Below, piece after piece: positions 21 to 16,865 of a DNA stretch of 64,000 nucleotides. Source of the stretch: an uncultured Eubacteriales bacterium (GTDB taxonomy: Bacteria; Bacillota; Clostridia; Oscillospirales; Acutalibacteraceae); NCBI GenBank assembly GCA_900316345.1, contig ONCR01000011.1, forward strand, positions 7,257 through 71,256, written 5' to 3'. The position numbers and the translations under genes were made by a program. Each line of letters starts with the position of its first letter. Positions within the stretch are counted from its first letter, which is position 1. The notes beneath the pieces were generated by a model. It searched no databases. It was not told where the DNA came from and saw only the letters and a list, made by a program, of their open reading frames with translations.

Positions 21-2228
21 TCAGATTGCGGTTTTATTAACTATGTTGATTTGGTTTGTGTAAGCGATTCGCAGTCTTCCGTAGGTGTCAAGGTAAGTCA
101 TATAGCCTTTTACCGCCCAGTTATTCTTTCTTGAAAGATTGCGGACGTTAAGGATGTAAAGGCCGCTGTCGCTTACGCCGGGGAACCTTGCGGTTGTAAC
201 CTGATTATTAACAATAAGGTTAACGTCCGTCGGGTCAAATTCGGCAGCGGGGAGCTTGATATAAGCAATACCTATCGTTTCAATTCTGCAGGAGGTGCTT
301 ACGTTTGAAGCCATAATAAATGTTCCCACGGATTCGTTGTTACTGCCGTCGTAAACGTAAGAAAGCGAAAGCGAAGGTGTGTTTACGTCAATCAGAGCAG
401 GAAGCTCCGGAATCTGAACGTCAACCGCGTCATATTCAGGGTAAATATCAATATTATAGCCGTTTTCAAGGTCAATAAAGTTTCTTTCGGTATAAACCCA
501 GCGGCCGTTGGTATAGCCGTATTTATAAGGCACCTTCGGGAACAGCGCCTCGTAATCCTCAACCTCAAGCCAATCGGCGGATGTTTTGCTTATACTTTCG
601 ATTACCTGGCCGCCTTCGCCGCGGAAGGTAAGCGTTGAATAAGTTTTATCAACAGCGATAGCCTTAATATAAAGATTTGACGTTACGGTATATGAGAAGG
701 TTGTTTCGGTTGAAAGGTAGCGTTTAGTATTAACGTCGTACCACGCGATAAAGCGGTGATTGGAATCCGTCTGCGCGGTAAAGGTTACATAATCGCCGAA
801 AAGAACGCGTCCCGTTCCCTCTCCCCTCGTGCCGTCCGAATCAGCAACCGTGGCGGAGCAGCCATCGCCTTCAAGTTGTAAATTGAGATAGGGTTCAAGC
901 ATTGAAAGCTTTGTAAGAATATCCGAAACCTCGCGGTCAATTGCAAACTGGGGATACTGTAAGCTGTCGCCGTCAGAGATGTTTTTATGAAGCTCGGCAA
1001 CGGAGGAAAGCTCTGAAAAGCTTTCTTCGGAATAATCCTCGGGAACAAGCGAGGAATAAAGCTGTTCGGCTTCAACAAGAGCAGAAATATCGTTTTCAAA
1101 ATCCGTTATTTCTCTGTTGCACGAGGTGCAGACCGCCTTATAACTGTCCGTACTGCTTGTATAAACATAATTATCGTTATGAGGAAGAGCAGCGGTTGTT
1201 TGCTGTTCGGTTATGGTTTCGCCGCATACGGAGCAATAGCTTCCCGCGGTTAATCCGGTTGAAGTACAGCTTGCAGGAACGGCGGGAATAACAACCTCTG
1301 TATGGCCGAGCGCGGGAATAGCAGTAAACGAGGAATCACCGCAAACAGAACAATAGTGCTCCATAACGCCGCGCCTTGTACAGGTAGGCTCGGAAAAAAC
1401 CTCATCAACATAAGTATGGCCGAGCGCGGGAATAGTTTCGTTATGAACATCTCCGCAGACCGAGCAGGTAAAGGTATCCGTTCCCGTTTCGGTACATGTA
1501 GGAGCTGCGGTTACCTCTTCGGTATAGTTGTGATGAAAAGCATTGTTGGAATAACAAGGATTCGAAATACGCTCTTCATATCCGTCGATTACATCCTGCA
1601 TATTGCCGAGGAAAACGGTTTCGCCGTTTGTTATATAATCGTTAACCATAGCGTCAACGCTTGTGTCGTCAAGTGTACCGTCGTTGGCCATAACGTCCGA
1701 GCCGGTGTTGATAACATTTTTAACAACGGAAAGCCAATCGCCTGTAAACACGCCGATACCGACCTTTACAGCATTGATAAGCGTATTTGTACTTAACACC
1801 TCGCTGTCGCCCTGGACGTTACGGATTCCGGTATCGCCGCTGAAAGCGTTTTCGTTAATTGAATTTTCCCTTTTAAGAAGATTTGATTGAATTTCTATAG
1901 TATCAACGCTTTTCATATTTGCAAAAACGTAAGCGCCGACGTAATTAACGTCCTCTTCAATAACAATCCTTGTAACGTCCGTTCTTCCGGCAAACGGGCC
2001 TTGGTCGGCTGAGGGATAATCGGGGGTGTTGGCGTTTGATACGCCGTCGCCGCTCAGGTAAAGGATTTTATTATCTTTATCAATAATCCAGTAAGCGGTA
2101 TTTGTTCCGTCGGTTAAAACACCGCGCTGAAAATAGCGCAGCTCATCAGCTGCGGCAAATGCCGAAATACTTCCCGAAACCGTTAATACGAGCGCAAGAA
2201 GAAACGCAATTATTCTTTTATACTTCAT
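21..2228 (-). CDS. Secreted cell-surface protein with a signal peptide, an LRR-like (BspA-type) N-terminal region, three Cys-rich C-x2-C-G...ALGH repeats and a C-terminal beta-rich module
   Basis: ORF 21..2273. The internal Met at 2228 (MKYKRIIAFLLALVLTVSGSISAFA/AADE) follows an AAAGGTGA RBS and gives a classic signal peptide. The motif C-T..G....C-S-V-C-G....IPALGH occurs three times. I recognise no characterised homologue. Confidence 0.75.
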   Translation of the reverse strand: MKYKRIIAFLLALVLTVSGSISAFAAADELRYFQRGVLTDGTNTAYWIIDKDNKILYLSGDGVSNANTPDYPSADQGPFAGRTDVTRIVIEEDVNYVGAYVFANMKSVDTIEIQSNLLKRENSINENAFSGDTGIRNVQGDSEVLSTNTLINAVKVGIGVFTGDWLSVVKNVINTGSDVMANDGTLDDTSVDAMVNDYITNGETVFLGNMQDVIDGYEERISNPCYSNNAFHHNYTEEVTAAPTCTETGTDTFTCSVCGDVHNETIPALGHTYVDEVFSEPTCTRRGVMEHYCSVCGDSSFTAIPALGHTEVVIPAVPASCTSTGLTAGSYCSVCGETITEQQTTAALPHNDNYVYTSSTDSYKAVCTSCNREITDFENDISALVEAEQLYSSLVPEDYSEESFSELSSVAELHKNISDGDSLQYPQFAIDREVSDILTKLSMLEPYLNLQLEGDGCSATVADSDGTRGEGTGRVLFGDYVTFTAQTDSNHRFIAWYDVNTKRYLSTETTFSYTVTSNLYIKAIAVDKTYSTLTFRGEGGQVIESISKTSADWLEVEDYEALFPKVPYKYGYTNGRWVYTERNFIDLENGYNIDIYPEYDAVDVQIPELPALIDVNTPSLSLSYVYDGSNNESVGTFIMASNVSTSCRIETIGIAYIKLPAAEFDPTDVNLIVNNQVTTARFPGVSDSGLYILNVRNLSRKNNWAVKGYMTYLDTYGRLRIAYTNQINIVNKTAI

Positions 2229-2287
2229 AGGAATCACCTTTTTACAGTTTTTCACAAATACATTATATAACATTTCTTATTAAAAGT

Positions 2288-2330
2288 AAAGAAATAAATA
2301 ACCGCTGACGGTAAAGCAACCGACAGCGGT
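2288..2330 (-). terminator. Rho-independent terminator after the V-ATPase operon
   Basis: Minus strand reads ACCGCTGTCGG-ttgcttta-CCGTCAGCGGT (11 bp, one mismatch) followed by TATTTATTTCTTT, directly after the subunit D stop. Confidence 0.55.
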
Positions 2331-2336
2331 GTATTA

Positions 2337-3017
2337 TTAATGAGCAGCTACCTCTTCGTCGTGAGCGATAGCCTTTTGCCTTGCTTCCTCAAGCATCATT
2401 GATTTAACCTTCATAAGCCTTGTTGTTGAGCTTCGCTCATTTTCATCAAGCTTCATAGTTATATACTTTATTGTTTCTTCATAGCGAGGAATCATAACGT
2501 GCTCAAGGGCGTTAACCCTTCTTCTTGTTTTTTCAATTTCAGCCGACATAAGGCGGCAGGATTTTTCAACCTCGGCAAGGCGGAGCATAAGCGGCATAAT
2601 TTCCGAAAGAGCTTTAACCGCATCGTCCAAATCAGACGAGGTAAAGGCATAGCCGTATGAATAAATATCGTTTTCATCAGCAGTTTTGAGCTTTGCGTCA
2701 AACACGGGAAGCATAACGCTCATAACGTTCTTTTCTTCAATTTCGAGCGTCATTTCCTGAGAGGGCATCATAAGCGCAACGTCAAGAGCCGCGTCGCTCA
2801 TAACGGAGCGCGCAACAGCCATATGCTTATTAGCCTCGGTTATTCCCTCTTCAACGCGGCGGCGAAGCTCCTTGTTTTCCCTTACCAAATCAAGAAAACG
2901 GCGCATAAGCTCATCGCGCTTGTCCTTAAGAAGCTTGTGCCCTCTGCGCGCCGTTGTAAGCTTGCGCTTCAGGTTTGTAAGCTCCATTCGGGTTGGATTT
3001 ACATTCATTACTGCCAT
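2337..3017 (-). CDS. ntpD: V-type ATP synthase subunit D
   Basis: N-terminus MAVMNVNPTRMELTNLKRKLTTARRGHKLLKDKRDEL is the typical V/A-ATPase D signature. It is the last gene of the V-ATPase operon. Confidence 0.95.
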   Translation of the reverse strand: MAVMNVNPTRMELTNLKRKLTTARRGHKLLKDKRDELMRRFLDLVRENKELRRRVEEGITEANKHMAVARSVMSDAALDVALMMPSQEMTLEIEEKNVMSVMLPVFDAKLKTADENDIYSYGYAFTSSDLDDAVKALSEIMPLMLRLAEVEKSCRLMSAEIEKTRRRVNALEHVMIPRYEETIKYITMKLDENERSSTTRLMKVKSMMLEEARQKAIAHDEEVAAH

Positions 3018-3037
3018 TTATTTCACCTGATTACAAA

Positions 3038-4411
3038 TCATTTTTCGTCATAGTATTCATCAAGAAGCGTGTCGCTGATACGCTTAAGCTCGCTTCTCGG
3101 GAATATTCTTAACAGCTTCCAGCCGATTTCAAGGGTTTCCTCAATCGTTCTGTCAACATCAAAGCTCTGGTTAACGTATTCCTTTTCAAATTCATCGGCA
3201 AATTTTGCATAAAGCTTATCCATATCGGTAAGCGCGGCTTCGCCGAGAACTACCATTAATTCCTTTGCGTCCTTACCTCTTGCGTAAGCGGAGAAAAGCT
3301 GATTCATGGTATTGGAATGGTCTTTTCTTGTTTTGCCCTCGCCGATACCCTTATCCTTAAGTCTTGAAAGGGACGGAAGAACGTCAATCGGGGGAAGAAT
3401 TCCTCTTCTGTAAAGGTCACGCGAAAGAATAATCTGTCCCTCGGTGATATATCCCGTAAGGTCGGGAATCGGGTGGGTTTTATCATCCTCGGGCATAGAG
3501 AGAATCGGAATCATAGTGATTGAACCGTCTTTTCCCTTCTGCCTTCCCGCTCTTTCATAAATTGAAGCAAGGTCGGTATACATATAACCGGGGTATCCGC
3601 GCCTTCCGGGAACCTCTTTACGTGCGGCGGAGACCTCACGAAGGGCGTCGGCATAGTTGGTGATGTCCGTCATAATAACAAGAACGTGCATTCCCTTGTC
3701 AAACGCAAGATATTCGGCTGCAGTAAGCGCCATTTTCGGGGTTGCAATTCTTTCAATAGCAGGGTCGTTAGCGAGGTTTGAGAACATAACCGTTCTGTCA
3801 AGCGCGCCGGTTTCCCTGAAGGACTGAATAAAGAAATTTGATTCCTCAAAGGTAATACCCATTGCGGCAAATACAACGGCGAACTTTTCATCCTTGCCCC
3901 TTACCTTTGCCTGACGGGCAATCTGAGCCGCAAGCTGTGCGTGAGGAAGACCCGAAGCAGAGAAAATAGGAAGCTTCTGGCCTCTTACAAGGGTATTAAG
4001 GCCGTCGATAGCGGAAACGCCTGTCTGAATAAACTCCTGGGGATATGCTCTTGCCGCAGGATTCATCGGAAGGCCGTTAACGTTAAGGCGCTTTTCGGGG
4101 ATAATTTCGGGGCCGCCGTCGATAGCTCTTCCGAGGCCGTCAAATACACGGCCGAGCATATCTTCAGAAACGCCGAGCTCCATCATTCTTCCGAGGAAGC
4201 GAACCTTACTGTTTGAAAGGTTAATGCCGGTTGAGGGCTCAAAAAGCTGAACAAGCGCATCGCTGCCGTTGATTTCAAGAACGCGGCAACGCCTTGTTTC
4301 GCCGTTTGCAAGCTCAATTTCGCCGAGCTCGTCAAACTTAACCCCTTCAACCTTTCTCACAAGCATAAGAGGACCTGCTACTTCTTCAACTGTTCTGTAT
4401 TCTTTTGGCAT
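3038..4411 (-). CDS. ntpB: V-type ATP synthase subunit B
   Basis: 457 aa with the conserved B-subunit core ([28 protein letters not shown]). It sits between subunits A and D. Confidence 0.95.
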
Positions 4412-6183
4412 CAGAATTCCTCCTTTGCGTTGATAACTTCGTTAATATCGTTTTCTACAAGAGAAACAACCTTTGCATATTCCTCATCAATGCTGTCCTC
4501 GGCAACATACTTGAACCTGCCGATTGCCTCTCTTGACGGGATAGCGACAAGCTTTTCAATATCAGCGTTCATTTCAAGCGCCGCATTTGCTTTATCGTAA
4601 TACTCCATAACAAGAGTCATCATATAATACTGCTTTTTGAGCGAGGTATAAGTGTCAATCTCGTGGAAGGCGAGCTGATGAAGGAAGTCCTCACGGATGC
4701 TTCGCGCAGCCTCCATCTTAAGCCTATCTGTCGCGGAAAGCGCGTCCATACCTACAAGCTTAACGATTTCATCAAGAGAAGCCTCGTCGGAAAGAAGGTT
4801 CATCATTCTTGTTCTGAGCTTCGTCCAATCACTGTTTACGTTATCGTTAAACCATTTGCCGAGATTATCGGCATAAAGCGAATAGGAGGTAAGCCAGTTG
4901 ATAGCCGGGAAATGACGCTTATATGCAAGCGCTGAATCAAGCCCCCAGAAAACCTTTACGATACGAAGCGTTGCCTGGGATACCGGCTCGGAAATATCAC
5001 CGCCGGGGGGCGATACCGCGCCGATAACGGAAAGCGCGCCCTCCTGCGAACCGCTGCCTAAAACCTCAACGCGGCCGGCACGCTCATAGAACTGCGCAAG
5101 ACGGGAGCCGAGATAAGCGGGATAGCCCTCTTCACCGGGCATCTCTTCAAGTCTGCCCGACATTTCACGAAGAGCCTCAGCCCAGCGCGAGGTTGAATCC
5201 GCCATAAGAGCTACGGAATAGCCCATATCCCTGAAATATTCCGCTATTGTAATACCCGTATAGATTGAGGCTTCACGCGCCGCAACGGGCATATCCGAGG
5301 TGTTTGCGATAAGAACCGTTCTTTCCATAAGCGATTTGCCCGTATGAGGGTCAATAAGCTCGGGGAATTCGTTAAGAACGTCGGTCATCTCGTTTCCGCG
5401 TTCGCCGCAACCGATGTAAACAACTATATCCGCCTCAGCCCATTTTGCAAGCTGGTGCTGGGTTACCGTTTTACCGCTTCCGAACGGGCCGGGAATAGCC
5501 GCAACGCCGCCCTTAGCAATCGGGAAAAGCGCGTCAATAACACGCTGGCCGGTAATAAGCGGCATATCGGGAGGGAGTTTCTTTTTATAAGGTCTTCCCT
5601 GTCTTACGGGCCACTTCTGCATTAGCGTTACGTCGTTTACCCTGCCATTTTCGTTTTCAATAGAAGCAATAACCTCAGTTACGGTATAATCGCCTTCGGT
5701 TATTGATTTAACAGCGCCGCTGACGCCGTAGGGAACCATAATTTTATGCCTTACAATATCGGTTTCCTGAACATAGCCGAGCTCGTCGCCTGCGGACACG
5801 CTGTCGCCTGCGCTGACAGTGGGATAGAAATGCCACTTTATGTCCCTTGAAAGCGACGGAACCTCGATACCTCTTTCAAGGTTGTTTCCGCTGAGCTCCA
5901 TAATCTTCTCAAGCGGACGCTGAATTCCGTCAAAAATACCTTTAATCAGGCCGGGACCGAGCTCAACGCTCAGCGGCTCGTTAGTTGATTCTACGGGCTC
6001 GCCCGTGCCGAGGCCTGCCGTATCCTCATAAACCTGAATTGAGGCTCTGTCACCGTGCATTTCAATGATTTCGCCTATAAGCCTGTGTTCGCTTACACGA
6101 ACAACGTCAAACATATTGGCGTCCCTCATATTTTCAGCAACAACAAGAGGACCCGATACCTTTAAAATTGTACCTTTACTCAT
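4411..6183 (-). CDS. ntpA: V-type ATP synthase catalytic subunit A
   Basis: 590 aa with Walker A GPFGSGKT and the motif GERGNEM...[10 protein letters not shown] typical of the A subunit. Its stop overlaps the B start by 1 nt. Confidence 0.97.
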
Positions 6184-10893: not shown

Positions 10894-10988
10894 TTTTTCA
10901 CCTTCTTTTATATTATCTAATTGAATATATCATATATATTATTTTATTTCAATAATTTACAGTTTTTTTAATCAATTTGTCATTAATT

Positions 10989-11024
10989 AAAAAAATGCAG
11001 AGGGAGAGTCAGGCTCCCTCTGCA
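10989..11024 (-). terminator. Rho-independent terminator ending the surface-protein/small-ORF transcription unit
   Basis: Minus strand reads TGCAGAGGGAG-cctgact-CTCCCTCTGCA (11-bp perfect stem) followed by TTTTTTT. Confidence 0.85.
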
Positions 11025-11086
11025 CATAAGGAGAAACAGCGGCAGGGACGAAAGGATTAAAAGCCTGCCGCCGATATGAAGCTGTT

Positions 11087-11206
11087 TCAGAATTCTATTT
11101 CCTCGTCGCCTTCCTCCCAGCCGGGAGTAGTGACAGATTCCGTAACAACGTCCTTAAAAGTAAATTTATCAATATTTAATTCAGGCTCAATATATTTCTT
11201 TTTCAC
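11087..11206 (-). CDS. Candidate 39-aa small ORF (MKKKYIEPELNIDKFTFKDVVTESVTTPGWEEGDEEIEF)
   Basis: It is below the ORF-track size cutoff. An AAGGAGG RBS (11214..11220) sits immediately after the stop of the upstream ORF, 7 nt before GTG at 11206 (an in-frame ATG at 12212 would be too close; the in-frame ATG is at 11212). The ORF ends in TGA at 11087 and the strong terminator follows ~60 nt downstream. No homologue is assigned. Confidence 0.45.
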   Translation of the reverse strand: MKKKYIEPELNIDKFTFKDVVTESVTTPGWEEGDEEIEF

Positions 11207-11220
11207 GTACATACCTCCTT

Positions 11221-11607
11221 CTAAACATTCGCCGAGGAGCAGATATTTCCGTAATAAATGGCCTCGTAATCTTCGCTTTCGCCGTCGCTGTTGATAAAGA
11301 AGAACTTATACTTAACATAAGCCCTTGTATAAACTACGGCTTCGTCGCGTTTAACTATTGAAAGCGAAAACTGCTTTGTAGAATCAATGGTTTTCTTGCT
11401 TTTCTGGATATATACACCCTCCGTGCCTATTACAAAATCATCGGCGGTAAGACCGTTATTTTTGCTGAATAGCGTTCCCGCTTCAACAACAGTTACGCCT
11501 TCGGGAAGGTTTTGCGTATACGCGCTGTGAGTAGTAAACTTTTCGTCCCCTTCGGCGCCTGTTGATTCGGCATAGCTGTAGATAAACGGAAGGCCGAAGT
11601 TAAGCAT
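11221..11607 (-). CDS. 128-aa ORF encoding a beta-rich C-terminal module, probably the out-of-frame 3' end of the upstream surface-protein gene
   Basis: It starts 8 nt after the upstream stop in a different frame. I see no convincing RBS. By eye it aligns with the C-terminal ~110 aa of the 21..2228 protein (VVEAGTLFSK/IETIGIAYIK; YTRAYVKY/AVKGYMTY; EAIYYGNI/RIAYTNQI). Confidence 0.55.
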   Translation of the reverse strand: MLNFGLPFIYSYAESTGAEGDEKFTTHSAYTQNLPEGVTVVEAGTLFSKNNGLTADDFVIGTEGVYIQKSKKTIDSTKQFSLSIVKRDEAVVYTRAYVKYKFFFINSDGESEDYEAIYYGNICSSANV

Positions 11608-11615
11608 ATGAAGGG

Positions 11616-14600
11616 TTAGCTTATAAAGCTTTCATCCTTATAAGCAAGGTAGGAATAGCTGTCGCCGTAAGCAATCGGCGTAAGAGCGCCGTTATTCAGA
11701 ATTGCAAGGGCGTAAGACTGATTATCGCCCGTTACTGTTGTAAATGCGTCATAGGCAATATTTTCCTGAACGTTTTTGCCGTCATAGCCTACGCTTGCAA
11801 CATAGCCGCCGTCGGGATTTGAATATTCGCCCTTGACGGTTAAAACGCCGTCAACTGCAGCTTCGCTTACCTTAACACTTCCGCTGAGGCTGTATCCGGT
11901 CAAGATATAATTACCTTTAGAGAGGAGGGAATAATCTATACCGTTTACCCTTAGTTTAGTACCGGATACAGTTACTTCATCCTCAGCGGAAGCCGGAAGA
12001 ATATTAACGGTTCTGCCGAACGCGTCAACAATCTTAACCGCGTATTCCGGACATACGGGAGAAGCATAAGCCTTAACCTTGATGTTACTTTGTGTTTTCA
12101 CTTCATATGTTGAGGAATCTACACAAAGCGTTTGAGTATTTTCGCCAAGGCCGTTATCGTCTGTAAGCTCCCACTTATATATTTTTCCGTATTCTTCGGG
12201 AGCTTCAAGCTTAACTACGGAGCCGTAAGCATACTCGCCCGTACCGTCAACATTGCTGTAGAGCACACCGTTTTCGTCAACAACCGAAAAATCAACAGAA
12301 AAGGTCTGAACGCTGAGTTCAACATTATTTTCGTTAATAGCGGTAAGAAGCTCTGTTACGCGTTTATCGGATTCATTAATCAAATCCTGTGTGCCTATTT
12401 CTCGTTGTTCGTTATAATCGTTTTCATCAAATCTGTCGGTCGTTTTAAACGCGTCAAACTTCCTTTTAGCTTCGGCAAGGGCGCTGTTAGCCTCATCGCT
12501 GTACTTCTCGTGGTCAAGCGTTTCGTAAACAAGGTTCATATAGTTATAAACCGAAACATCAACACCCTCAACCTTTTCGTGGTTGGTTTTATCAACAACA
12601 CAAACAAAGGTTGCTAAATCGTTGTCCTCGCTGTCATAACCGAAGAGATGCTTTCTTCCGCCGGCAATAAGCGCTTCACGGGAAACTCTGAGGTTTTCTG
12701 CCGCCGTCTCAGCAGTGCTCTTATCGGTATAGATGTTTGACATAACGGCGTTAATTTCGTCCTTCGCCGTCTGAAGCGCCGCTTCGTAATCATCCCAAAG
12801 CTTCATATCAAAGCAATCGTAATTTGTATCGTAATCAAAGGAAATTACGATTTCCTGCCTTAAGTCCTCATATTCCTCGTCCTTATCAAATTCGCCTTCT
12901 TCAACAATTTCCGCGGCCTTTTCCATATCTGTGCAGGCGCCGTTAATCTTATCAACCGCTGTTTTAACGCCTGTTTCAATATTGGCAGCATAGTCAATGG
13001 TACCCATTGAAATATCTATACCCGTTACGCCGTCAACCTTTTTAAGAAAGTCCATAATTTCAGCAGCGCCCGTATCGCTGTTAGGAATAGCGTTAAACAC
13101 ATCCTTCTGTTCGGAGAGCTTCTTTAAAACAGGAACGATGTTGATTACATAAATCGGGGTTTGCTCATCTGAGTTTGTGTCTGATGTTTTTACGCTCGTT
13201 TCAGAGGTACCGCTACCCGTTCTTGCTCTCCAGCTTAATACAAATTTCTTTGATGTTGCTTCGGTTACTCCGGCGAAATCTGTTGCGCCGCTAATATATT
13301 TAATACCGTTAGCATAGCCGTTTCTTGCCTCACGGCCGCTCTTGGAATTATGCTTTTTATCGGCAAAAATATACGGAGTAACGCTGCTGTCCTTCGTATC
13401 GCCCGCGGTAATATAAGCGGTAATGTGATTTGTTGTGCTGTAATATGAGCTGTCATACTGAGCAACGGAGGTGCCGTCCATGCAGCCTGACCAGTTCAGC
13501 GCAAGAGAATCCATATTCATACTGTCGTCGTCATCGTGGTCCGCTTCGGCAATACCCTTCCAAAGGTGGTTAATGATATTGAAGTTTGCAGTATTAATAA
13601 GGCTTACAGTATAAACATAACGTTTCGTTTCGTTAATACTCAAAAGCGGACTCGCCGTGTTGTAGCCGACGTACTGAACAGGTAGCTTTGCATCATTAAT
13701 GCCGTCATATAACAGAACTGTGGGCGAATAGTAAACATAGTTATTGATGTCGCCTTTATTAGCAAAACGCTCGCCTACATGGTTTAAGCCCTGCTGCCAG
13801 TAAATGATATTATCATAAAGGCTTGTAACCTCTGAACTTTTAGTATTTGTTGTAAAGGTTGAGAAGGTAGGCACAACGTTTGCAGACTCCATATCAAAAT
13901 CCGTCATAGCTTCAAGATTATCGTGGAAGCTGACAACAAGCTCCTCAAGTGTCGGGTCCTCAAACTCGGTTGTGTCGCCGTAAGTGTAAGCGTCAATATA
14001 TTCCTTAGCTTTAATGTAATCCACATAGGTGTTATACATATTCATATACACCATTGTATTTTCGCCGTCGATAGCGGCAATTTTGCGCTCATAATCCTTA
14101 ACATACTCGATAAGCGTGTTCATCTGTGCCGAAATGCTTGACGGCTTAAGGTTCTGAAGGCCTGCGATAGCCTTGTCCATATCCTCGCTGTATTTATCAG
14201 CATAATAAACAACGTCGGAAGCAAAGTTGTAATTTGCAGGATTAAGGCTTGTTGCGGCGTCAAATGCACTGAAAATGCTTTCAAGTCCGCCGGCTTTATA
14301 ATCGGAAACCGCTGAAATATACTGTGCAGCATCCTCGCCTGCTGCGGCAATGGCTTCGCTCATCTTTTTCTGATTAATAAGGTAAATGCCGTTACTCCAG
14401 GACATTGAATATTCCGTACCGTCAGAGGAATCGCTACCGTTGTCGCCGTAAGCGTTCCATGATGTTTTACCAATAACCTTAACATTTTCGTCGAACGCTC
14501 CGCCTTTATAAATAATAGAGTTCTTAAGGCTTACTGCTGAATTGCTTGAACCGACTTGTATTAAATTTGCATTTGAGCCCGACGGAGCCGTTGCCGCAAG

Positions 14601-15266
14601 AGTAAGACCTGTTCCTGCATTCCAGTTGAAATCAACATTTCCGCCATACCAGATATCGTTTTTCATTTTGAAATCATCGTTTTCAACAATGTAGATACCC
14701 TTTGCTTTATAGGCATAACGGGAGCCTTCCTTTAATCCGCTCATAACAGGAACGCTAATTGGATTTACACCGTCATAGAGAAATACGCAACGCGGATAGT
14801 AAATATACGCAAAGCAGCCGTAAACAAGCAATCCTCTCTTACGGAGAATCTCTGTACCGCCCGTAAATGTGGTATCAGTTCCCTTATAAGCAACAAGATT
14901 GTTATAGTAACCGCTGTCAATCGTAACGCCGTTAATTGAAGCAGTACCCGTTGCGGTAATTCCTGTATAAGCGGTCATCTGCTCGGTTTGCTGAACAAGA
15001 GCAACCGTTGCGCCTTCAAGATCGACGGTTCTTCCGTTATCATAGGCATTAGCGGCGCCTATTGCGCTTTTATAGGCTGTATATGCCTTTGACATATTTG
15101 TGTAAACCGTTCCGTCCATTTTTGCTTCGTATGCTTCAATTGCCGAAGCAAGAGCTTCTCGTTCGGCTGAATCAGCAGACGCGGTAAACGGAAACACGGT
15201 TAATGCCGTAAGCACCATAACGATTGACATAAGCAAAGCAAATGCTTTTTTCGTAAGCTTTTTCAT
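11616..15266 (-). CDS. Large secreted surface protein (1216 aa) with a signal peptide, helical FIVAR-like segments and an internally duplicated beta-rich domain
   Basis: ORF 11616..15308. I prefer the ATG at 15266 (MKKLTKKAFALLMSIVMVLTALTVFPFTASA/DSAE), which has AGGAGG 8 nt upstream. The longer GTG start at 15308 lies inside the leader terminator hairpin. Confidence 0.8.
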   Translation of the reverse strand: MKKLTKKAFALLMSIVMVLTALTVFPFTASADSAEREALASAIEAYEAKMDGTVYTNMSKAYTAYKSAIGAANAYDNGRTVDLEGATVALVQQTEQMTAYTGITATGTASINGVTIDSGYYNNLVAYKGTDTTFTGGTEILRKRGLLVYGCFAYIYYPRCVFLYDGVNPISVPVMSGLKEGSRYAYKAKGIYIVENDDFKMKNDIWYGGNVDFNWNAGTGLTLAATAPSGSNANLIQVGSSNSAVSLKNSIIYKGGAFDENVKVIGKTSWNAYGDNGSDSSDGTEYSMSWSNGIYLINQKKMSEAIAAAGEDAAQYISAVSDYKAGGLESIFSAFDAATSLNPANYNFASDVVYYADKYSEDMDKAIAGLQNLKPSSISAQMNTLIEYVKDYERKIAAIDGENTMVYMNMYNTYVDYIKAKEYIDAYTYGDTTEFEDPTLEELVVSFHDNLEAMTDFDMESANVVPTFSTFTTNTKSSEVTSLYDNIIYWQQGLNHVGERFANKGDINNYVYYSPTVLLYDGINDAKLPVQYVGYNTASPLLSINETKRYVYTVSLINTANFNIINHLWKGIAEADHDDDDSMNMDSLALNWSGCMDGTSVAQYDSSYYSTTNHITAYITAGDTKDSSVTPYIFADKKHNSKSGREARNGYANGIKYISGATDFAGVTEATSKKFVLSWRARTGSGTSETSVKTSDTNSDEQTPIYVINIVPVLKKLSEQKDVFNAIPNSDTGAAEIMDFLKKVDGVTGIDISMGTIDYAANIETGVKTAVDKINGACTDMEKAAEIVEEGEFDKDEEYEDLRQEIVISFDYDTNYDCFDMKLWDDYEAALQTAKDEINAVMSNIYTDKSTAETAAENLRVSREALIAGGRKHLFGYDSEDNDLATFVCVVDKTNHEKVEGVDVSVYNYMNLVYETLDHEKYSDEANSALAEAKRKFDAFKTTDRFDENDYNEQREIGTQDLINESDKRVTELLTAINENNVELSVQTFSVDFSVVDENGVLYSNVDGTGEYAYGSVVKLEAPEEYGKIYKWELTDDNGLGENTQTLCVDSSTYEVKTQSNIKVKAYASPVCPEYAVKIVDAFGRTVNILPASAEDEVTVSGTKLRVNGIDYSLLSKGNYILTGYSLSGSVKVSEAAVDGVLTVKGEYSNPDGGYVASVGYDGKNVQENIAYDAFTTVTGDNQSYALAILNNGALTPIAYGDSYSYLAYKDESFIS

Positions 15267-15282
15267 TTTTAGTTCCTCCTTT

Positions 15283-15332
15283 AAAAATAAAAAGACCGAC
15301 TGCAACACTTAAAATAAGAATTGCAGCCGGTC
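15283..15332 (-). terminator. Riboswitch expression platform: intrinsic terminator in the leader of the surface-protein gene
   Basis: Minus strand reads GACCGGCTGCAA (15332..15321), a 15-nt loop, then TTGCAGTCGGTC (15305..15294). This is 12 bp with one G-U pair, followed by TTTTTATTTTT. The 5' arm is the 3' end of the conserved aptamer-like element. Confidence 0.75.
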
Positions 15333-15400
15333 GATCATACAATAAATTGGTTAGACACCTTGCTTTGCGTCACCGCCTTTCGACGGCTTTGCCCTTTAAT
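15321..15400 (-). promoter_or_regulatory. c-di-GMP-I (GEMM-I) riboswitch-like aptamer, copy 1
   Basis: Minus strand reads AUUAAAGGGCAAAGCCGUCGAAAGGCGGUGACGCAAAGCAAGGUGUCUAACC...GAUCGACCGGCUGCAA. It contains the GGCAAA / GNRA loop CGAAAG / GACGCAAAGC core of GEMM-I. It lies in the 5' leader of a surface-protein gene, and a paralogous copy sits 1.2 kb upstream. Confidence 0.8.
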
Positions 15401-16502
15401 CTGATTTTCTTTTTAATTGTTTTTCCTTATACATATTACGGTCCGCGCGTTGAATCAAATCTTCAAACGCTTCGCCGTTTTCCGGAGTTCCCCTCGCCCG
15501 TCCGAAAGAACAGGTTAAGCCTTCGGCTACTCCTTCGATTTTAAGGGAATCCAGGTCATTATGTATTTTGTTTTTTAAGGCTTCAAAATCATAATTATTA
15601 AGCCCTATGTTTATAATTAAAAACTCGTCTCCGCCATAGCGGTAAATATATTTTTCATCAATATTTGCCTTAAAAACATCGGCAATTGAAGCAATAACCC
15701 TGTCGCCGACTATATGGCCGTAGGTATCGTTAATATGCTTAAAATTATCACAGTCACACATAACAAGATAAAGGTGCTTATTGTAATAATTAACGCTGTC
15801 TTCAATAAGCGCATAGCGGTTTTTAAGCTTAGTAAGAACGTCGTATCTTACTGCCCTTTCAAGCGCGGAATTAAGCGAGGCAACCTTTTGGCGGCCCAAT
15901 TGCTGTTTTCGCATAAGGTGATACTTTGCCGAGCTTGCTACAATACAGATACAGGCAAAGGCAAAGAAATTCAGAATATGAATCGATGGCGCTCCGTCGA
16001 AATGAACCAAAACAATGTAACAAACGGTAAACGAAACGGAAAGAAGAATAAGGCTGATATAAGGTTTGATTATTATAAACGCAGCATATGTTACCATTAC
16101 AATATAAAAGGTTATTATATCCTTGCCATAAATATAGTGATTATACGAAAGATAGATGCTGTAAGCAGTAAGAATGGAAAAAGCAATAACCGTAACAACG
16201 GTAATCTTTATATGGGAAACAAATTCATAATTCTTTGCACGTTCAGAATAAAAGTAAAAGAACAAACAGAAAAATACAACAAATGCAACTGACATTGTGC
16301 TTTCCTTTATGTTTCTTACCTGAACAAGACCGGTTGCAACAAAAAGATAAGTAAACAGCTCATAAACTATAACAACTAAAGATATACTGTTAACATTTTT
16401 GATATTAGCTTTGTCCATTTCATTTGTAACACTTAAGGAATCCTTAGGACAGAGTATACTTTTAAGCCAAGATAAAAGATTTTTCATAAATAACCTTAAC
16501 AT
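15396..16502 (-). CDS. Membrane-bound diguanylate cyclase (polytopic N-terminal domain plus GGDEF domain)
   Basis: About 6 predicted TM helices are followed by a GGDEF domain (DVLTKLKNRYAL...DNFKHINDTYGH..GD...RYGGDEFLI...ADRNMYKEK). The start is ambiguous: ATG at 16502 abuts the leader terminator U-tract, and Met-6 at 16487 is the alternative. Confidence 0.9.
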   Translation of the reverse strand: MLRLFMKNLLSWLKSILCPKDSLSVTNEMDKANIKNVNSISLVVIVYELFTYLFVATGLVQVRNIKESTMSVAFVVFFCLFFYFYSERAKNYEFVSHIKITVVTVIAFSILTAYSIYLSYNHYIYGKDIITFYIVMVTYAAFIIIKPYISLILLSVSFTVCYIVLVHFDGAPSIHILNFFAFACICIVASSAKYHLMRKQQLGRQKVASLNSALERAVRYDVLTKLKNRYALIEDSVNYYNKHLYLVMCDCDNFKHINDTYGHIVGDRVIASIADVFKANIDEKYIYRYGGDEFLIINIGLNNYDFEALKNKIHNDLDSLKIEGVAEGLTCSFGRARGTPENGEAFEDLIQRADRNMYKEKQLKRKSD

Positions 16503-16503
16503 A

Positions 16504-16562
16504 TAAAAATCGACCGCAAATATATCGCATTGAAAAAAGCAATACTTTTGCGGCCGGTCGAT
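16504..16562 (-). terminator. Riboswitch expression platform: terminator-like hairpin in the leader of the cyclase gene
   Basis: On the minus strand, AUCGACC(ggcc)GCAAA (16562..16547) pairs with UUUGCGGUCGAU (16520..16509) and is followed by UUUUUA. The 26-nt loop contains a small hairpin. The 5' arm overlaps the 3' end of the aptamer-like element. Confidence 0.6.
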
Positions 16563-16630
16563 CGTATAGTTTTAGCTACTTAGACACCATAGCTTTGCGC
16601 CACCGCCTTTCGACGGGTTTGCCAAATATT
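16547..16630 (-). promoter_or_regulatory. c-di-GMP-I (GEMM-I) riboswitch-like aptamer, copy 2
   Basis: Minus strand reads UUUGGCAAACCCGUCGAAAGGCGGUGGCGCAAAGCUAUGGUGUCUAAGUAGCUAAAACUAUACGAUCGACCGGCCGC. It has the same core as copy 1 and lies between a consensus promoter and the GGDEF gene. Confidence 0.78.
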
Positions 16631-16647
16631 AATAAATTGTTAACATT

Positions 16648-16675
16648 ATTATATCAAAAATTTCAAATTTGTCAA
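16648..16675 (-). promoter_or_regulatory. Sigma-A type promoter for the riboswitch-cyclase transcript
   Basis: Minus strand reads TTGACA (16675..16670), a 16-nt spacer ending in TG, then TATAAT (16653..16648), about 20 nt upstream of the aptamer. Confidence 0.65.
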
Positions 16676-16744: not shown

Positions 16745-16776
16745 AAAAACAACAAAAGCAGTGAATTAACACTGCT
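16745..16776 (-). terminator. Terminator after tRNA-Leu
   Basis: Minus strand reads AGCAGTG-ttaatt-CACTGCT followed by TTTGTTGTTTTT, 4 nt after the tRNA 3' end. Confidence 0.6.
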
Positions 16777-16780
16777 TAAG

Positions 16781-16865
16781 TGGTGCGCCTGACAGGACTT
16801 GAACCTGCACATCGGTAGATACTAGATCCTAAATCTAGCGCGTCTGCCAATTCCGCCACAGGCGC
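16781..16865 (-). tRNA. tRNA-Leu (anticodon UAG), class II with a long variable arm and encoded CCA
   Basis: Minus strand reads GCGCCTG-TG-GCGGAATTGGCAGACGCGC-TAGAT-TTTAGGA-TCTAG-long variable arm-GTGCAGGTTCAAGTCCTGT-CAGGCGC-A-CCA. The 7-bp acceptor stem, T-loop GGTTCAAGTCC and anticodon loop TT-TAG-GA are all present. Confidence 0.92.

Follow-up and report, generated by a model that had tools for sequence, protein, structure and literature searches.

Riboswitches that sense cyclic di-GMP (c-di-GMP) rarely control c-di-GMP metabolism (PMC6366702). The closest described systems act on other genes or as closely spaced copies. The class I element Bc2 responds to c-di-GMP by promoting read-through into the collagen adhesin gene cap, both in vitro and in vivo (PMC4933901). 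The Bc3-5 array of Bacillus thuringiensis responds 11- to 13-fold with a single copy, 28-fold with two copies, and 38-fold with three, the additional copies giving a lower background (PMC4759541). The tandem catalog of Sherlock et al. (2022) lists 347 doublets and 12 triplets of the c-di-GMP-I class under criteria that admit only elements with no open reading frame (ORF) between them and a gap of at most 300 nt, and the ORF-separated riboswitch clusters of D. acetoxidans were treated as independent devices (PMC9481103). Layouts in which a gene lies between two riboswitches were left out of this catalog because such pairs were excluded by design (PMC9481103). Here we describe a layout of this kind in a 64-kb stretch of contig ONCR01000011.1 from an uncultured Eubacteriales bacterium (hereafter called the window). 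Two predicted c-di-GMP-I riboswitches, termed RS1 and RS2, lie on either side of a gene for a membrane diguanylate cyclase (dgc) and precede a gene for a large, putatively secreted protein that we call the cargo. We propose, with moderate confidence and from sequence analysis, that the locus is a single sigma-A operon in which two c-di-GMP-I ON riboswitches act in series with the diguanylate cyclase gene between them.

Results

Two predicted c-di-GMP-I aptamers flank a diguanylate cyclase gene

A first-pass annotation of this DNA had proposed the order promoter, riboswitch, cyclase, riboswitch, large ORF, small ORF, and terminator, and each of these features was recovered at or near its proposed position (Table 1). 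Both aptamers exceed the RF01051 gathering score of 35 in an Rfam scan, as do the aptamers of related loci (57 to 70 bits), and no third c-di-GMP-I aptamer was found in the 64-kb window with either Rfam or our own covariance model. Covariation and conservation were evaluated with a sample of only 12 related sequences. In this alignment, 94.2% of cells are paired and 8 of 22 pairs have changed on both sides, compared with 17 to 49% pairing in slid controls. The segments GGCAAA, GCAAAG, and a 3′ GC (columns 11–16, 37–41, and 83–84) are unvarying in 12 of 12 aptamers, and these invariant positions include those that we take to be the ligand contacts G20, A47, and C92 in Vc2 numbering. The presence of G rather than A at the first contact position distinguishes c-di-GMP sensors from cyclic GMP-AMP sensors. 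For this riboswitch class, a single pocket nucleotide switches ligand specificity (PMC9481103). RS1 and RS2 are therefore predicted, from these features, to bind c-di-GMP and to affect expression in response.

The gene between the aptamers encodes about six hydrophobic or transmembrane segments (residues ~32–190, by hydropathy) followed by a GGDEF domain that matches Pfam PF00990 with E = 1.4e-30 and also TIGR00254. The RYGGDEF motif and the active-site D, K, N, and D residues are invariant in an alignment of 21 family members, and the intact active site suggests that the protein is enzymatically active. The start codon at 16487 is backed by a TAAGGTGAT ribosome-binding site that is kept in relatives. 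No RxxD I-site is found at its usual place five residues before GGDEF, where the window reads IDEK, and RxxD is unconserved across the family. This site governs product inhibition and is not a defining feature of diguanylate cyclases. A crude motif scan of the window, which is not a rigorous domain search, revealed no EAL, HD-GYP, PilZ, or further GGDEF motif. Note that in the near-identical locus L005 a 1-nt deletion near position 1000 (equivalent to window position ~15560) interrupts dgc, and the called product (P0131) is 319 aa.

Table 1. Features of the predicted unit and of its immediate neighbors, in window coordinates
Feature	Position	Strand	Evidence
Sigma-A promoter TTGACA-16-TATAAT with extended TG	16648..16675	minus	12/12 match
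RS1, c-di-GMP-I aptamer	16546..16633	minus	RF01051, 57.2 bits
RS1 expression platform: hairpin 16556..16511 plus U-tract	16502..16556	minus	folding
dgc, membrane diguanylate cyclase, 363 aa	15396..16487	minus	PF00990, TIGR00254, hydropathy
RS2, c-di-GMP-I aptamer	15319..15403	minus	RF01051, 68.7 bits
RS2 expression platform: hairpin 15332..15294 plus U-tract 15293..15283	15283..15332	minus	folding
AGGAGG ribosome-binding site of cargo gene	15275..15280	minus	read from sequence; kept in L001, L004, L005
Cargo gene, large secreted protein (predicted), truncated to 1216 aa	11616..15266	minus	signal-peptide-like N-terminus
64-nt deletion site in cargo gene	11624..11625	minus	blastn gap and base-level comparison with L005
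Orphaned C-terminal 128 codons of cargo gene, different frame	11221..11607	minus	identical to P0001 C-terminus
Small ORF, 39 aa, acidic C-terminus, GAAGGAGG ribosome-binding site	11087..11206	minus	kept in L002, L004, L005
Unconditional intrinsic terminator closing the unit: 12-bp stem, 7 G-C, T-run	10985..11025	minus	terminator scan
tRNA-Leu (anticodon TAG), upstream neighbor	16781..16865	minus	Rfam 58.3 bits; ARAGORN
tRNA-Leu terminator	16777..16756	minus	terminator scan
Promoter of neighboring V-ATPase genes, next after final terminator	10952..10924		promoter scan, Pfam

Sequence evidence for a probable single transcript

The first-pass annotation had found only one good promoter and only one strong unconditional terminator for this unit, and our scans agree on both counts. 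The match at 16675..16648 is the sole outstanding promoter in 9 kb, with a predicted transcription start near 16641, and the other 21 promoter-like matches in this stretch occur at chance frequency (22 matches in total, compared with 19.3 ± 4.5 in shuffled sequences). Its −35, TG, and −10 elements are kept in L001 and L003 despite an overall DNA identity of 76%, and every RS1 examined has a promoter scoring 10 to 12 of 12 located 14 to 29 nt upstream. Likewise, the final terminator (11025..10995) is the only strong unconditional one, the other minus-strand matches inside the unit being 5-bp stems. The terminator of the upstream tRNA-Leu gene shields the unit from upstream transcription.

The junction between dgc and RS2 is especially compact. 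The first nucleotide of RS2 lies 5 nt ahead of the TAA that ends dgc (15398..15396), and the RS2 U-tract ends a few nucleotides short of the cargo ribosome-binding site. Because RS2 begins within the last codons of dgc, no intergenic promoter could fit here, and a scan for sigma-A promoters yielded none of at least 10/12 within ~960 nt upstream of RS2. Furthermore, because dgc has no terminator after it, RNA that passes RS1 must enter RS2. Given the stop-codon overlap and the absence of a promoter, we infer that co-transcription is the most economical reading of the locus.

The expression platforms are predicted to be ON switches

A strong hairpin and U-tract come after each aptamer, with a calculated folding energy of about −23 to −24 kcal/mol. 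In the minimum-energy fold of both leaders, the 5′ arm of the terminator is the aptamer's own 3′ strand (GACCGGCYGCAA), comprising the last 11 nt of the RS1 aptamer and the last 14 nt of the RS2 aptamer. All 12 elements examined, which represent seven lineages, share this organization: the 5′ arm of the terminator starts 11 to 27 nt inside the aptamer and a U-tract comes after the hairpin. For these 12 elements, the terminator fold is more stable than the aptamer-enforced fold by 1.6 to 20.8 kcal/mol. Because the terminator fold outcompetes the aptamer-enforced fold in stability, the default state is predicted to be termination.

The nucleotides shared by the two structures appear to be constrained by both. 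Aptamer columns 78–86, which include the invariant C that is a putative ligand contact, pair within the terminator in 11 to 12 of the 12 elements. The terminator pair at column 82 covaries perfectly (C-G in 5 elements and U-A in 7), in one lineage column 80 has changed from G to A and its partners in both the aptamer and the terminator show the compensating change, and the RS1 terminator is kept in relatives with compensatory changes. Since the aptamer pairings and the terminator pairings each covary, both mutually exclusive helices are under selection. There is no independent terminator downstream of those that overlap the aptamers. In leaders without a separate anti-terminator, the ligand-stabilized aptamer must block termination, and so RS1 and RS2 are predicted to be ON switches. 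Note that this direction is derived from structure, not from precedent.

The two elements differ at one site of potential functional relevance. Column 82 (window position 16552 in RS1 and 15325 in RS2) resides two nucleotides before the putative ligand-contacting C and is C in 5 of 6 RS1 copies, whereas U is present in 6 of 6 RS2 copies. The base of the last stem is therefore an A·C mismatch in RS1 versus an A-U pair in RS2, and the terminator partner covaries (G versus A). This difference might give the two gates different thresholds.

These features are consistent with the following mechanism. When c-di-GMP is low, the strong promoter would fire but most RNA would stop at the RS1 terminator (about 16511), and the RNA that leaks through would yield a little cyclase before stopping at the RS2 terminator (about 15294). 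A rise in c-di-GMP could come from the putative membrane sensor domain of this cyclase or from other cyclases. Ligand-bound RS1 would then keep its 3′ strand, the terminator would not form, and more cyclase mRNA would be made, which would constitute positive feedback by an enzyme that has no RxxD product-inhibition site to restrain it. Ligand-bound RS2 would extend the same transcripts into the cargo genes, such that cargo output would require both gates. Because both platforms appear to be of the ON type, passing the first gate would raise synthesis of the ligand for the second. The earlier proposal of one unit with two c-di-GMP checkpoints and the synthase between them is thus supported by the stop-codon overlap, the promoter-free ~960 nt upstream of RS2, and the ON-type platforms of 12 of 12 elements, although it remains a prediction.

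The arrangement recurs in related loci

Loci that encode exact copies of cargo and cyclase homologues were looked up and then scanned with Rfam and with our own covariance model. The first-pass annotation had recommended a survey for the order riboswitch-GGDEF-riboswitch-adhesin. We found the order RS-dgc-RS in five lineages whose cyclases are 35 to 100% identical to that of the window (Table 2). Their cargo varies and includes a sortase-pilus operon in L014/15, and RS2 has been lost in L012/13 and L104.

Table 2. Riboswitches and cargo of loci with related cyclases
Locus	Cyclase identity	Riboswitches	Cargo
Window / L005	99–100%	RS1 + RS2	1369-aa protein + small ORF
L001-3	66%	RS1 + RS2	as in window
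L010/11	63%	RS1 + RS2	52-aa ORF
L014/15	46%	RS1 + RS2	202-aa protein, signal peptidase, VWA/Cna_B protein, SpaA pilin, sortase
L016/17	35% (homologue labeled Ruminococcaceae/Oscillospiraceae)	RS1 + RS2	two small proteins
L004		RS2 at stop codon; upstream off contig	as in window
L103	65% over N-terminal domain	RS2 at stop codon; upstream off contig	
L012/13, L104	52–54%	RS1 only	L012/13: Cna_B/SpaA/sortase pilus operon 74–110 nt after cyclase
L098-L102	34% or less	none	

The overlap of RS2 with the stop codon is kept in the window, L001, L004, L010, and L014, and coordinates imply it for L103, a short contig. A metagenome scan with the family-specific membrane domain recovered three loci, adding L103 (RS2 at the stop codon) and L104 (RS1 only). 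Cyclase relatives with identities of 34% or less do not show the order, and our aptamer model gave no matches in 885 kb surrounding 80 unrelated GGDEF genes from species-representative genomes of all phyla. In the window's clade, RS1 copies have a common distal hairpin (GTAG...CTAT) and RS2 copies have another (CCAATTTATTG). Because the copies of each element share their own hairpin, the RS1/RS2 pair is older than the split of these lineages. In L016, RS1 (3475..3560) and RS2 (4733..4818) are nearly identical, and this RS2 is apparently part of a duplicated promoter-plus-aptamer module or, as an alternative, a product of gene conversion. The sandwich layout is conserved and probably arose more than once. 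Where RS2 is missing, a short CCGG...CCGG hairpin in the gap after the cyclase gene (L012 8683..8757, L013 8063..8173) may be a remnant of an RS2 terminator.

The cargo of L012 and L014 includes sortase pili and Cna_B/VWA adhesins, which carry the hallmarks of cell-wall-anchored adhesins and pilins. Pilus and adhesin genes belong to the class typically induced by c-di-GMP. L014 also encodes a full-length paralogue of the window's cargo (27..4694; 25% identity, E = 5e-52) with a small ORF at 4711..4899. This paralogue lies ~2 kb upstream of the RS-dgc-RS-pilus cassette, so that both kinds of cargo reside in one neighborhood. Judging from the sample labels of the datasets behind several contigs, which we read as rumen or gut metagenomes, the relatives presumably inhabit gut and rumen. 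With the family label of the 35%-identical homologue also considered, the source bacterium of the window is probably an Oscillospiraceae/Ruminococcaceae species of gut or rumen.

A tRNA gene directly upstream of RS1 is likewise present in L001 (8200..8281) and L010 (7549..7628), the Leu type being established for the window only. The genes beyond this tRNA differ between L010 and the window or L001, and in L001 the tRNA 3′ end and terminator are duplicated ~190 nt away. This arrangement may represent an integration scar or a hint of cassette mobility.

The cargo gene encodes a predicted secreted protein and carries a frameshift

The cargo has an N-terminal signal-peptide-like segment and no second hydrophobic or transmembrane segment. 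Searches of its sequence against Pfam, NCBIfam, and the PDB gave no match, and the intact homologue contains no LPXTG motif. Of the features of a Gram-positive cell-wall-anchored adhesin or pilin (a signal peptide, a C-terminal LPXTG sorting signal, and Cna_B, SpaA, or VWA domains), the cargo has only the signal-peptide-like N-terminus. An AlphaFold2 model of residues 32–380 (predicted local distance difference test score 78.5, predicted template modeling score 0.78) depicts a helical bundle around a beta-sandwich. This model has no PDB match at E ≤ 1e-3, and Foldseek returned only generic Ig-like sandwiches with a template modeling score of about 0.2. We considered the cargo as an adhesin and rejected this assignment, neither sequence nor structure searches having produced an informative match. 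The first-pass name "surface protein" is not sustained by any recognizable domain or anchor, and the gene is also interrupted by a 64-nt deletion. We describe the cargo as a putative secreted protein of unassigned function, for which surface localization would be an assumption. The module formed by residues 32–380 (window 14127..15173) is repeated internally at ~380–700. It also occurs in large proteins that differ in the remainder of their sequence, such as P0004, which has LRR_5 and fn3 domains.

Intact homologues of the cargo (100%, 80%, and 72% identity) are 1368 to 1369 aa long. The window lacks 64 nt that are present in the 99.4%-identical L005, the gap falling between 11625 and 11624, and the reading frame is shifted as a result, also in comparison with the 1369-aa homologue P0001. 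No microhomology flanks the deletion. The ORF at 11607..11221 has no ribosome-binding site of its own, and because the deletion shifts the frame, this 128-codon ORF is explained as the orphaned C-terminus of the cargo. The deletion could be a real pseudogenization or an assembly error. Two near-identical strains, represented by the window and L005, thus bear different lesions in one operon, in the cargo gene and in dgc respectively. These lesions may be assembly artifacts, or the unit may be counter-selected in some strains.

The 39-aa ORF that follows has the consensus KKxYxEPExxIxKFTxxDVVTxS...GWxxGDxEIEF over 38 to 39 aa. The distant cargo homologue P0006 is also trailed by a small ORF, of 45 aa, with a YxEPELEI start in common, and the L014 cargo paralogue is trailed by one of 62 aa. 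The pairing of a large protein with a small protein therefore recurs across the cargo family. The cargo and small ORF together define an uncharacterized family of putative secreted proteins from uncultured Clostridia of gut and rumen.

Alternative readings of the locus

Several findings weigh against a single, serially gated operon, and they are considered here with the alternatives that they favor. First, the locus might comprise two independent units, in which a promoter inside dgc drives RS2 and the cargo gene. The cargo would then be under one gate, and the two units would be neighbors because c-di-GMP regulates both, not because they are gated in series. Weak promoter-like sites indeed reside in dgc at 16393..16366, 15752..15744, and 15586..15558. 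The best of these, at 16393..16366 shortly after the start of the gene, matches 10 of 12 positions with a TG and occupies the same position as a 9/12 match in L010. The second is an extended −10-like TGTGATAAT whose position is kept in four lineages, and the third matches at 9/12. However, matches of this quality occur at the chance level noted above, the site at 15586..15558 decays in L001 and L004, and the recurrent internal sites are explained by coding because they sit on invariant codons: TGTGATAAT corresponds to the C-D-N codons of DxDxFK, and TATATT corresponds to the Y-I codons of IYRYGGDEF.

Conservation at the 3′ end of dgc bears on the same question. The last ~35 nt of the gene (within 15396..15440) are almost invariant in DNA across lineages of ~70% overall identity, and synonymous-codon identity peaks here (0.70 compared with a mean of 0.50). 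However, this peak is no clear outlier, as other windows of the gene reach 0.62 to 0.65. RS2 may extend further 5′ here, a hidden promoter may be present, or the conservation may be due to chance. An organization of this kind is seen in L016/17, wherein RS2 of L016 has its own perfect promoter (TTGACA-17-TATAAT, 4698..4726) in the 42-nt gap after the cyclase stop codon, and L012/13 and L104 have dispensed with RS2 altogether. These relatives establish that a second serial gate is neither obligatory nor indispensable, and gating that is strictly serial characterizes the window's clade but does not extend to all relatives. For the window itself, transcripts from the 12/12 promoter would reach RS2 in any case because no terminator follows dgc, and we regard two independent units as unlikely here.

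A second concern is that the cargo gene in the window is frameshifted by the 64-nt deletion, which severs the last ~150 residues of the protein. The unit in this genome might accordingly be a decaying remnant that retains the ancestral architecture, with a broken cargo and no functional output, and the additional 1-nt lesion in dgc of the near-identical L005 could be viewed as another sign of decay. Yet the window retains an undamaged promoter, two undamaged aptamers with their terminators, an open dgc frame, and an undamaged small ORF, and intact versions are commoner among cluster members. The deletion could be an assembly artifact, and even a truncated 1216-aa protein may still function. 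For these reasons, we judge decay to be decidedly unlikely.

Lastly, that both elements are OFF switches, by which c-di-GMP would repress its own synthase in homeostatic negative feedback as well as the cargo, would match the uniformly OFF behavior of the functional class I c-di-GMP switches tested in C. difficile (PMC6200980) and the typical role of riboswitches in negative feedback on ligand pathways (PMC6366702), but this is highly improbable given that no separate terminator/anti-terminator pair is evident, that 12 of 12 terminators consume the aptamer 3′ strand together with its conserved, putatively ligand-contacting C such that a folded, ligand-bound aptamer would exclude the terminator, that the same architecture is experimentally ON in Bc2 and Bc4 (PMC4933901, PMC4759541), and that the pilus and adhesin cargo of relatives fits induction by c-di-GMP.

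The dynamic behavior of a serially gated operon also requires some moderation of the original claim. The first-pass annotation had called the design "feed-forward or ultrasensitive". The first gate is indeed predicted to raise the ligand of the second, but "ultrasensitive" is too strong a term for two gates alone: by calculation, placing a second hyperbolic gate in series takes the response range from 81-fold down only to about 40-fold, with an apparent Hill coefficient of 1.19. What serial gates do accomplish in the calculation is to square the leak, for example by expanding a 10-fold dynamic range to 100-fold. When feedback through hyperbolic gates was modeled with cyclase activity linear in enzyme, the system was bistable in none of 1131 parameter sets, whereas activity scaling as the square of the enzyme amount gave bistability in 52 of 1131. 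Bistable feedback therefore arises only with an extra nonlinearity, such as dimer-dependent cyclase activity. GGDEF cyclases typically work as dimers, for which such square scaling would be expected. A "low-leak AND gate plus self-amplification" would be a fairer description of the modeled circuit than "ultrasensitive", and switch-like behavior, if any, would stem from feedback and further nonlinearity.

Discussion

The preferred reading of this locus remains a single operon with two ON riboswitches in series around the gene for the synthase of their ligand. If this is true, the locus would provide a natural instance in which a riboswitch drives positive feedback on the synthesis of its ligand, whereas riboswitches usually act in negative feedback. 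It would also constitute a two-key positive-feedback circuit built from cis-acting RNA and one enzyme, which could offer compact, low-leak, committed switching. In relatives, pilus and adhesin expression would be the output of this circuit, and the whole would be an example of locus-specific c-di-GMP signaling.

We tentatively suggest a broader interpretation, to which we give less credence than to the operon itself. The RS-dgc-RS arrangement might be a portable, RNA-gated, self-amplifying c-di-GMP cassette with at least two origins, through which Oscillospiraceae of gut and rumen would commit to attachment in an all-or-none and possibly bistable manner. In such a cassette, a second ON riboswitch fused to the stop codon of the synthase would license whichever adhesion cargo is downstream. 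The two origins would be represented by the promoterless RS2 of the window's clade and by the duplicated promoter-plus-aptamer module of L016.

Each part of this arrangement is known by itself, from the class I aptamers and ON platforms to tandem copies and the regulation of adhesin and pilus genes. We found no prior description of the RS-dgc-RS arrangement in the literature. The impression in the first-pass annotation that such a synthase sandwich had not been described fits with the exclusion of intervening ORFs from the main tandem survey (PMC9481103). Riboswitch-ORF-riboswitch circuits have been systematically overlooked by tandem surveys and can now be searched for.

Comparison with known systems reveals both shared and distinct features. 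In the c-di-GMP regulon of C. difficile, pili, adhesins, and other envelope proteins are under riboswitch control, as is predicted for some relatives of the window, but its class I elements are OFF switches, induction of adhesins and pilA1 proceeds via class II, and none has been reported to flank a cyclase gene (PMC6200980). Bc2 provides a close parallel to RS1 and RS2, being a class I aptamer with a terminator/anti-terminator platform that acts as an ON switch upstream of the adhesin gene cap (PMC4933901). Unlike the locus described here, Bc2 is a single element, and its unit contains no cyclase.

Another close counterpart is Bc3-5, which like RS1 and RS2 consists of complete class I riboswitches in series, each with its own terminator (PMC4759541). 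In Bc3-5 the C of the binding site, the P1 strand, and a portion of the last stem are also used by the terminator, an overlap that makes the elements ON switches (PMC4759541) and that is shared by RS1 and RS2. The reduction of leak that we calculate for serial gates agrees with the measured behavior of Bc3-5 (PMC4759541). However, the Bc3-5 copies share one 5′ untranslated region with no gene between them. The aptamers in the window are about 1.14 kb apart with the 1092-nt cyclase gene between them, and we rejected the label "tandem riboswitch" for RS1 and RS2 because the intervening ORF breaks the published definition (PMC9481103). The locus nevertheless has two complete riboswitches of one class with separate expression platforms, as do "pseudo-cooperative" tandem riboswitches, and these two would probably lie on one RNA. 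A difference from Bc3-5 is that a 1.1-kb gene for the ligand synthase separates the copies, such that the first gate would also control ligand production. RS1 and RS2 are thus expected to work like a tandem riboswitch to which a feedback loop has been added.

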